Of a stretch of 64,000 bases of DNA, positions 17,893-18,242 are shown piece by piece; position 1 is the first letter of the stretch, and every line of letters starts with the position of its first letter. The stretch lies in the NCBI GenBank assembly GCA_049860595.1, contig CP187551.1. The stretch is one strand, 5' to 3'. This stretch comes from Methanocaldococcus sp. 16A. Its GTDB lineage: Archaea > AGJL01 > Methanococci > Methanococcales > Methanocaldococcaceae. The notes beneath the pieces are model-generated. The model was not told where the DNA came from and did no database searches. It saw only the letters and a list, made by a program, of their open reading frames with translations. The position numbers were made by a program, and so were the translations under genes.

Positions 17893-17923
17893 TCCCTCCG
17901 GAGTAAAAAATGAGAAGGAGGGA
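17893..17923 (+). promoter_or_regulatory. Putative K-turn/K-loop hairpin sequestering the rpl30e Shine-Dalgarno
   Basis: TCCCTCC (17893-99) pairs with GGAGGGA (17917-23, SD), followed by three G.A/A.G pairs (17900-02 with 17914-16) closing loop GUAAAAAAUGA. Confidence 0.55.
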
Positions 17924-17927
17924 AAGT

Positions 17928-18242
17928 ATGGATGTGAATAAAGCAATTAGAACTGCAGTAGATACAGGTAAAGTAATTTTAGGTTCAAAAAGAACAATAA
18001 AATTCATTAAACACGGAGAAGGTAAGTTGGTAGTAATAGCAGGAAACATTCCAAAGGATTTAGAAGAAGATGTTAAGTACTACGCTAAATTATCAAACAT
18101 CCCAGTTTACCAACACAAAATTACATCATTGGAACTGGGAGCAGTTTGTGGGAAACCTTTCCCAGTTGCTGCTCTTTTGGTTTTAGATGAAGGGCTCTCA
18201 AACATTATGGAGCTTGTAGAGAAGAAGGAAGGTGGTGAATAA
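17928..18242 (+). CDS. rpl30e: 50S ribosomal protein L30e
   Basis: [27 protein letters not shown] 17928 lies 6 nt after the GGAGG SD (17910 is an alternative). Confidence 0.97.

Follow-up and report, generated by a model that had tools for sequence, protein, structure and literature searches.

A conserved hairpin resembling 23S rRNA at the start of archaeal rpl30e is a candidate eL30 autoregulatory leader

Why should the Shine-Dalgarno (SD) sequence of an archaeal rpl30e gene be one strand of a hairpin whose loop reads like ribosomal RNA (rRNA)? The question arises in a 64,000-nucleotide (nt) stretch of contig CP187551.1 of Methanocaldococcus sp. 16A (assembly GCA_049860595.1), hereafter the window, in which the gene for ribosomal protein eL30 (L30e) is preceded by a strand complementary to its SD (anti-SD). 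The genome is of the Methanocaldococcus type, 1.62 Mb long with 30% G+C. An initial annotation of the window had proposed that a kink-turn (k-turn) or K-loop buries the SD here, and that free L30e or L7Ae represses translation of rpl30e and the overlapping nusA. The comparative tests were all supportive, and that interpretation is now partly supported by sequence evidence. We lean, with modest confidence, towards a leader through which eL30 would regulate its own synthesis by rRNA mimicry, in which the ligand, the kinked geometry and the repression are what we infer.

The string first reported at the rpl30e start is exact: UCCCUCC (17893-17899), GGAGUAAAAAAUGAGAA (17900-17916) and GGAGGGA (17917-17923) are followed by AAGU and the start codon (17928-17930). 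G17900, G17901 and A17902 face A17916, A17915 and G17914, giving A.G at 3b.3n, A.G at 2b.2n and G.A at 1b.1n, and U17911-G-A17913 occupies the L1-L3 position directly 5' of GAA, both as originally described. The helix built on the SD is a perfect 7 bp in this genome, but only its inner 5 bp (CCUCY/GGAGG) is kept across the order Methanococcales. Folded alone, a 51-nt fragment has the hairpin (17893-17923) as its minimum free energy (MFE) structure, at -12.3 kcal/mol (z = -2.65); out of 200 shuffled sequences, one folded equally well. Burial of the SD therefore describes the MFE structure of this fragment, but the full leader, whether taken as 181 or as 215 nt, is predicted to have a different ground state. 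The k-turn or K-loop claim stands at the level of sequence, in the tandem G.A/A.G pairs beside a helix of 5-7 bp and a 3-nt bulge, but a canonical (C) helix is missing. Without a Watson-Crick C helix the leader can only be a K-loop and not a standard k-turn; the Methanococcales hairpin is thus at best K-loop-like, a prediction from sequence with a putatively kinked geometry.

To place the hairpin among relatives, we surveyed 37 rpl30e upstream regions from 40 genomes of the order, one locus (L046) being too short to parse. The pattern CCUCY-GGAG-N(4-8)-UGAGAA-RGAGG stood 6-10 nt 5' of the AUG in 30 of the 37 and was lacking in seven (six genomes that form a subclade of genus g3, and G015). From 18 distinct Methanococcales leader sequences we built a covariance model, which gave a single match of 40.3-56.5 bits in 31 of the 40 genomes (including G033), each abutting rpl30e, and its remaining matches all scored 23.1 bits or less. 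Since 38 of the 40 genomes have the gene, 31 of 38 rpl30e-bearing genomes carry the element. The hairpin is more than chance, being both conserved and unique per genome.

The conserved core reads CCUCY-GGAG-(A-rich N4-8)-UGAGAA-GGAGG. Both CCUCY and UGAGAA occur in 18 of 18 distinct leaders; GGA is invariant in the alignment, and none of the 18 lacks the fourth G, one row being misaligned there. The bases of the tandem G.A pairs (G17914/A17902 and A17915/G17901) are invariant in the same 18 leaders, and the UGA bulge lies 5' of GAA in every Methanococcales leader aligned. The connector from GGAG to UGAGAA takes the forms UAAAAAA, UAAAAAAA, UAAAA, AAUAUAA, AAAUAAA and AAAAC. Three Methanocaldococcus loci (L021, L023, L024) with unrelated upstream genes and leaders keep the element letter for letter. 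Loss of the anti-SD and G.A-forming bases in relatives had been named beforehand as a result that would speak against the proposal; these bases are instead kept across five genera. The closing pair is C-G in ten leaders, U.G in seven and U-A in one, and the helix barely covaries within the order, as is to be expected where one of its strands is the SD, which is constrained anyway.

The seven leaders without the motif are L039-L044 (G030, G035, G027, G028, G031, G024) and L022 (G015). Those of the g3 subclade carry CAAGAUGA(A/G)..GGAGG before the start, with pyrimidine runs (CUCUUUC-like) upstream, an arrangement that may be a different way to occlude the SD. We also scanned metagenomes with the 17-mer GGAGTAAAAAATGAGAA and set the result aside: at least 118 stretches matched, and the word looks like an ordinary SD plus AUG. 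None of 80 fetched loci encodes L30e, 58 of the 80 lack a flanking pair and the single 5-bp case is unrelated. One-mismatch matches to the 17-mer in 401 genomes were at control level, and an exact match in G386 and a near match in G248 were rejected as the SD and start of other genes.

An AUG within the loop (17910-17912), lying partly in the UGAGAA strand, is in frame with rpl30e in this genome. Translation from it had likewise been named beforehand as a result that would speak against the proposal. We rejected it on comparative grounds: its equivalent is off-frame in L019-L021 and L023, is followed by a stop in L024 and is CUG in L056-L058. For the same reason, coding does not explain the invariance of GGAG and UGAGAA. 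The rpl30e orthologues all start MD(V/I)N, and the start at 17928, as originally annotated, is borne out. In the deposited structure chain 3cpq_A (110 amino acids), residues 7-110 match residues 1-104 of the 104-amino-acid protein; that chain evidently includes six residues from the upstream AUG, from which it was built. The rpl30e start is thereby corrected to give 104 amino acids, against 110 in the deposited chain.

Where does the loop sequence come from? Near positions 1613-1643 of the organism's own 23S rRNA lies CCCGG-GGAGU-GCC-GUAAU-GGC-GAGAA-CCGGG, whose strands GGAGU and GAGAA are alike in the leader and stand in the same orientation to the flanking helix. The pattern GGAG-N3-15-GAGAA occurs 368 times in the genome, and only four occurrences have a flanking helix of at least 6 bp: the two rRNA copies, the rpl30e leader and one site with an AU/GU stem inside an open reading frame (ORF). 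That last site (25791-25830, plus strand; UUUUUC-GGAGACGGUUAUGAGAA-GAAAGA) lies in a 301-amino-acid ORF (25424-26329), and we judged it a chance occurrence on account of its AU/GU-rich stem and its position within the ORF.

The 23S hairpin is probably helix 58, which contains Kt-58 and would be the eL30 site. We assign it so because the conserved CCGACACAGG follows it at a distance of about 100-120 nt, and because it presumably shares the strand layout of helix 58 and has A.G at 3b.3n, as published. Here and below, statements from published work refer to the passages covered of each paper. In eukaryotes, L30 binds a k-turn in helix 58 (PMC3706390) and eL30 is located with helix 58 in the yeast pre-60S particle (bioRxiv 10.1101/2022.02.24.481786); 3b.3n of Kt-58 is A.G (PMC5061560). 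We extracted eight 23S genes and aligned six, checking G083 and G084, which lack the anchor word, by regular expression; the hairpin was present in seven of the eight (all six aligned genes and G084) and not in G083. A symmetric 5x5 run of non-canonical pairs is another possible way of drawing the rRNA loop.

If the loop is tied to eL30, it might accompany rpl30e beyond the Methanococcales. Most of the 32 rpl30e upstream regions that we took from other archaeal families have rpl30e abutting an rpoA''-like gene. In G084, whose L30e is 38% identical, a 256-nt spacer holds GCGCU-GGAGUAAAAAAUGAGAA-GGCGC, an identical loop on a different stem that is not the SD, with a TATA-like box before the motif and U-tracts after it. 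The 61 genomes sampled from this second order yielded 59 rpl30e loci; we examined all of them, and six of these leaders have the loop. One (G413) reads ACGCU-GGAGAAAAAAUGUGAA-GGCGU and has the bulge UGU. Four others (G243, G357, G441 and G205) carry a permuted form, CCUU-GAGAA-[inner stem]-GGAGU-AAGG, 60-110 nt 5' of the start, with the inner stems GUAAC..GUUAC, GC..GC, GCC..GGC and GCGC..GCGC. In this form the internal loop of the rRNA is complete, with a helix on either side, and is closed from the other end; two of the inner-stem pairs covary, among four sequences only. In this genome, a scan for the permuted GAGAA-hairpin-GGAG found 715 occurrences, six of them with weak AU-rich stems and none convincing.

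Adding the second order also changed the outcome of the covariation check that had been proposed at the outset: not significant within Methanococcales alone, it supports the helix in the combined alignment. The latter comprised 11 rows, nine of the 18 Methanococcales rows plus the K-loop-type rows of G084 and G413. In it, 89% of cells are paired (slid registers pair 52-61%) and four of six pairs show compensatory changes; the score of 0.379, against 0.173 for shuffled alignments, was reached by 1 of 500 shuffles, a control that overstates significance for related sequences. A wider search returned 36 related loci, and the motif was in none of the non-Methanococcales ones (Hydrothermarchaeota, Pyrodictiaceae, Bathyarchaeota and Micrarchaeota metagenome-assembled genomes), in which rpl30e mostly abuts the preceding rpoA''-like gene and has no leader.

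Several details of these distant leaders stand on their own. In G084 (L188/L307, 1440-1520, minus strand), whose SD is GUGAU, UUCUUUUGAAUCCUUCUGUUUUUUUCG comes after the motif. For the 3' strand AAGG of G243, a CCUU further downstream is a second possible partner, and AUUUUGU comes after that CCUU. These sequences hint that the second-order leaders use attenuation rather than SD occlusion. Two Micrarchaeota loci (L121, L123) have CCUU-GAGAG-[hairpin]-GAGAG-AGG(G)-like sequences upstream of rpl30e, which recall the permuted motif with different loop strands.

How might the Methanococcales hairpin be switched? In the MFE structures of the 181-nt and 215-nt leaders, 17779-17789 pairs with 17894-17901; in the 181-nt fold, CCCUCC is paired with the upstream AGGGAG (17785-17789) and not with the SD. 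Among 14 representative leaders, the MFE structure at 37 C paired the anti-SD (with or without GGA) with an upstream G-rich segment in 12. The partners differ, being GGAGG-AAAAA-CCUCC in g5, GAGG...CCUC in g3 and g2, UCCGGA...UCCGGA in L021 and CCGGUAGGGAG...CCCUCCGG here. Enforcing the SD hairpin in the 14 leaders cost 0-8.7 kcal/mol; the hairpin is marginal at 60-85 C, with a predicted energy of -6.9 to +1.4 kcal/mol when enforced at 85 C. This modelled competition for the anti-SD suggests a bistable switch that a protein would lock in the OFF state.

Under the reading that we favour, the leader of the rpl30e-nusA mRNA would be a candidate site for free eL30, imitating the helix-58 loop GGAGU/GAGAA. 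In Methanococcales, the SD and the anti-SD would form the helix beside this loop, the inner stem of the rRNA being reduced to an A-rich loop. Without protein, the anti-SD would pair with the upstream G-rich segment, or the weak hairpin would melt at growth temperature; the SD would then be free, and rpl30e and the coupled nusA would be translated. Once eL30 exceeded free rRNA, it would bind the G.A/A.G/A.G platform, lock the anti-SD:SD helix and block initiation. The predicted competing fold fits a published need, stated for L7Ae leaders, for the RNA to be open until the protein binds (PMC6298567).

Several results weigh against this reading. The C helix is absent and an A-rich connector joins the strands, making the element a K-loop at best, and K-loop binding is documented for L7Ae and not known to be documented for L30e. 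Seven of the 38 rpl30e-bearing Methanococcales genomes are without the motif, which is thus dispensable. Within the order, the covariation score (0.159 against 0.122) was reached by 30 of 500 shuffles and is not significant. The G084-type hairpin lies 80-110 nt from the start with the SD outside it, so that SD occlusion is not a universal mechanism. On the rRNA side, we take the 23S hairpin to be helix 58/Kt-58 from assumed H. marismortui coordinates (a 6 + 9 + 7 nt layout) and from position; the hairpin is kept in three of four genomes without a clear L30e (G042, G088 and G066) and so does not track the protein, which argues for a role beyond holding eL30. In a small-RNA run from a relative, depth over the leader is 3 or less, with about 3 reads in 17770-17796. 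Lastly, UCCCUCCGGA and AUGA..AGGAGG are common to the l7ae and rpl30e leaders, and one protein might serve both.

That protein could be L7Ae, a general archaeal binder of k-turns and K-loops, which would operate the same SD-occluding switch and co-regulate rpl30e with its own gene. The l7ae gene lies elsewhere in this genome (G000:C1:1347397-1347684) behind its own leader. Leaders of l7ae in Methanococcales have a canonical K-loop, CCA-UGAUGA-UAU-GA-GUGG, and nearer the gene UCC-GGA-U...(G/A)AU-GAA-GGAGG, which in Methanocaldococcus becomes UCCCUCC-GGA-U...AU-GAA-GGAGG; throughout the order, both the K-loop and UCCGGAU...AUGAAGGAGG are kept. The l7ae leaders thus share with the rpl30e leaders of these genomes a GGA opposite a GAA beside an anti-SD:SD helix, the two leaders in this genome have a 10-mer in common, and our covariance model finds a weak 20.4-bit match just upstream of l7ae in G009. 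K-loops are known L7Ae substrates; in the published passages, L7Ae binds mRNAs beyond its own and a 50-bp M. maripaludis l7ae untranslated region (UTR) is repressed by L7Ae in a reporter (PMC5539422).

We nevertheless consider L7Ae unlikely as the regulator of rpl30e. The bases that distinguish the rpl30e leader from those of l7ae (an extra G after GGA, and UGA-GAA in place of GAU-GAA) are invariant and are exactly those shared with GGAGU/GAGAA of the 23S rRNA, and two distant orders have the motif at rpl30e; for these reasons we favour eL30 as the ligand. In addition, l7ae leaders have a canonical C-box-like K-loop of their own, which the rpl30e leader lacks. The bulge is UGA in the rpl30e leader and CGA in the rRNA, against GAU or AAU in the l7ae leaders of the order and GAU in all six published l7ae leaders, whose terminal loop may be on the C or the non-canonical (NC) side (PMC6298567). 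L30e of S. acidocaldarius binds and regulates yeast L30 mRNA (PMC5539422, citing Vilardell 2000). As a separate observation, the l7ae leader of this genome (L031, G000:C1 ~1347690-1347800) has the C-box-like K-loop CCAC-GAUGA-UAC-GA-GUGG, then a 7-bp hairpin with UCCCUCCGG in its loop and then AUGAAGGAGG at the SD.

A switch might also need no protein at all: the anti-SD hairpin and its upstream competitor could tune or temperature-gate rpl30e-nusA, with the loop serving RNA stability or ribosome standby. An anti-SD:SD helix by itself would reduce initiation, the two folds are near iso-energetic and the hairpin is marginal at 85 C, all as such a leader would have it. We find it quite improbable all the same, since it leaves three things unexplained: why ten unpaired bases of the loop never change in five genera when the connector next to them varies freely, why these bases are identical to an rRNA internal loop, and why the loop recurs upstream of rpl30e elsewhere, permuted and on stems that are not the SD.

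In the long upstream hairpin (17779-17901; z = -4.72), a repeat resembling a miniature inverted-repeat transposable element (MITE) supplies the 16-bp stem. The terminal inverted repeats are TAGGACTTTCGCAG / CTGCGAAAGTCCTA; the element measures about 92 nt, and TA or TTA often adjoins it. One arm has 146 matches in the genome with at most two mismatches, against none for a control, and about 99 arm pairs lie on G000:C1 at a modal offset of 77-80 nt. Most Methanocaldococcus genomes keep the copy in the rpl30e leader, with a variable interior; it is absent from L021, L023, L024 and the other genera, in which the hairpin is still there. We tried the anti-SD as a part of the repeat and rejected it: around other copies the flanking sequence bears no relation to AGGGAG and CCCUCC, which are therefore not parts of the element. 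By sequence comparison, the repeat sits inside a pre-existing hairpin of the upstream G-rich segment and the anti-SD, and is not part of the regulatory motif. We regard it as very improbable that the SD hairpin, instead of regulating rpl30e, derives from the mobile element or serves to process or terminate transcripts from upstream (box C/D small RNA (sRNA) or rpoA''). In favour of this view are the repeat adjoining the anti-SD region, an abundant C/D sRNA 210 nt upstream and U-tracts after the motif in G084. Against it, other copies lack CCCUCC/AGGGAG in their flanks, the hairpin persists without the element (L021, L023, L024 and four other genera) and a conserved promoter separates it from the sRNA.

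How does an eL30 leader of this kind compare with known systems? Like the archaeal L7Ae 5'-UTR k-turn (Daume et al. 2017, PMC5539422; Huang, Ashraf & Lilley 2019, PMC6298567), it is a k-turn-type element in the leader of an L7Ae-family ribosomal protein gene, with tandem G.A/A.G beside the SD, a proposed open-until-bound logic and a stem-loop occluding the ribosome-binding site; the terminal loop is on the C or NC side there, and there are two forms here. It differs in the gene, in a bulge of UGA rather than GAU, in the extra G...GA that copies the 23S hairpin, in its predicted ligand and in a conserved upstream competitor that pairs the anti-SD. In the yeast RPL30 (L32) k-turn (structure 1T0K), a protein of the same family binds its own transcript at a site resembling that in helix 58 and represses translation, and on the yeast RNA an archaeal L30e can take the place of the yeast protein. 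The yeast site, however, acts on splicing as well and spans the 5' splice site and the start region, with no SD involved; it has U.G at 3b.3n (A.G here) and a full C helix.

With 23S Kt-58, on the probable helix-58 assignment, the leader shares GGAGU and GAGAA in the same orientation to the flanking helix and A.G at 3b.3n; the rRNA differs in its 3-bp inner (C) stem with a GUAAU loop and in a C before GAGAA, where the leader has an A-rich loop and a U. The C'/D' K-loops of archaeal box C/D sRNAs likewise have a closing NC helix, tandem G.A and a loop replacing the C helix, but the leader has no C/D boxes, has A.G rather than U.U at 3b.3n and is part of an mRNA whose SD is a helix strand. The Methanococcus L1 mRNA site is an rRNA-mimicking ribosomal-protein leader. 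Similar to other such leaders (bacterial S15 and L20; the archaeal S15, eL15 and L4 candidates of Eckert & Weinberg 2020, PMC7247131), ours is a cis element upstream of its ligand's own gene, narrow and lineage-specific in distribution, with several scaffolds for one protein. The main text of PMC7247131 contains no mention of L30, L7Ae or names in Methanococc..., and none of its 20 motifs concerns them.

The initial annotation knew of no description of such a leader for archaeal L30e, which agrees with our search, which found none in Rfam 15 or in the full-text literature searched, subscription-only literature being outside its scope. Scanning 17400-18100 against Rfam 15 (E ≤ 10) returned nothing on 17893-17930, the only matches being C/D sRNA families (17618-17676) and spurious microRNA models on the MITE hairpin. 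The kind of element, a ribosomal-protein leader or an L7Ae-family k-turn switch, is known. Very few archaeal ribosomal-protein autoregulatory leaders are known (in the literature covered, L7Ae and the computational S15, eL15 and L4 candidates), and eL30, if our reading is true, would join them as the first prokaryotic counterpart of the yeast RPL30 feedback loop. The origin of the loop could then be tested where genetic tools exist (Methanococcus maripaludis) and where L30e structures have been solved, and a hyperthermophile would offer a protein switch that hides the SD within about 31 nt. With closely similar k-turn switches at both l7ae and rpl30e, a single cell would provide a natural pair for asking how L7Ae-family paralogues discriminate RNAs.

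It is possible, if doubtful, that eL30 feedback through a copy of the helix-58 loop is an ancient archaeal-eukaryotic trait. The Methanococcales K-loop, the permuted form of the second, distant order of small-genome archaea and the yeast RPL30 k-turn would then be descendants or re-inventions of one module. On the same tentative footing, the Methanococcales three-part switch (anti-anti-SD/anti-SD/SD) would tolerate mobile-element insertion, and the k-turn regulons of eL30 and L7Ae would run in parallel without cross-talk, the bulge (xGA or GAU) keeping them distinct.

The features of the locus are collected in Table 1. The promoter box upstream of rpl30e is kept across the genus, and a AAAAGTATAAAAATAAC-like version occurs across the order. 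From its position, transcription is predicted to start near 17768, giving a leader of about 155 nt; contigs from RNA libraries cover the leader and rpl30e jointly, and the start site is not readable from them. The claimed overlap of rpl30e and nusA is real (TAATG at 18240-18244), and because the start of the nusA-like gene thus overlaps the rpl30e stop, the two are probably translationally coupled.

Table 1. Features at and around the rpl30e leader (positions in the window; BRE, B recognition element; CDS, coding sequence)
Feature	Position	Strand	Remark
rpoA'' gene with intein	15000-17558	+	Intein_splicing 1.1e-23; LAGLIDADG_3 1.4e-22
Box C/D sRNA	17618-17681	+	between rpoA'' and rpl30e promoter; snoPyro_CD 40.2 bits, gathering score 45
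BRE/TATA-like promoter of rpl30e-nusA unit, CCAAAAAG TATATAAATA	17728..17745	+	from sequence; conserved box
Upstream partner of anti-SD ('anti-anti-SD', CCGGUAGGGAG)	17779..17789	+	competes with SD for CCCUCCGG
MITE-like repeat, 16-nt terminal inverted repeats 17790-17805 / 17873-17888	17790..17888	+	in loop of competing hairpin
Anti-SD strand UCCCUCC	17893..17899	+	5' strand of SD-sequestering helix; NC helix in k-turn terms
GGAGU, non-bulged loop strand (3n, 2n, 1n, -1n ...)	17900..17904	+	identical to one 23S rRNA hairpin strand
A-rich connecting loop	17905..17910	+	occupies place of rRNA inner (C) stem-loop; variable length and sequence
UGAGAA, bulged strand (L1-L3 = UGA; 1b-3b = GAA)	17911..17916	+	GAGAA identical to second 23S hairpin strand
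SD GGAGGGA, 3' helix strand	17917..17923	+	GGAGG-to-AUG (17928) spacing 6 nt
rpl30e CDS	17928..18242	+	104 amino acids, MDVNKAIR...; Pfam PF01248 E = 2.7e-24; PDB eL30 chains match
nusA-like KH-domain gene	18242..18805	+	ATG overlaps rpl30e stop; then S12 and S7

Upstream of this unit, the rpoA'' intein (15000-17558) contains a LAGLIDADG domain. The C/D sRNA that follows (17618-17681) has the boxes C GAUGAUGA, D' CUGA, C' UGAUGA and D CUGA. In the relative's small-RNA run it reaches a depth of about 10,000, with ends near 17619 and 17680-17682, and 38 reads that join 17677-17681 back to 17619 indicate circular forms.

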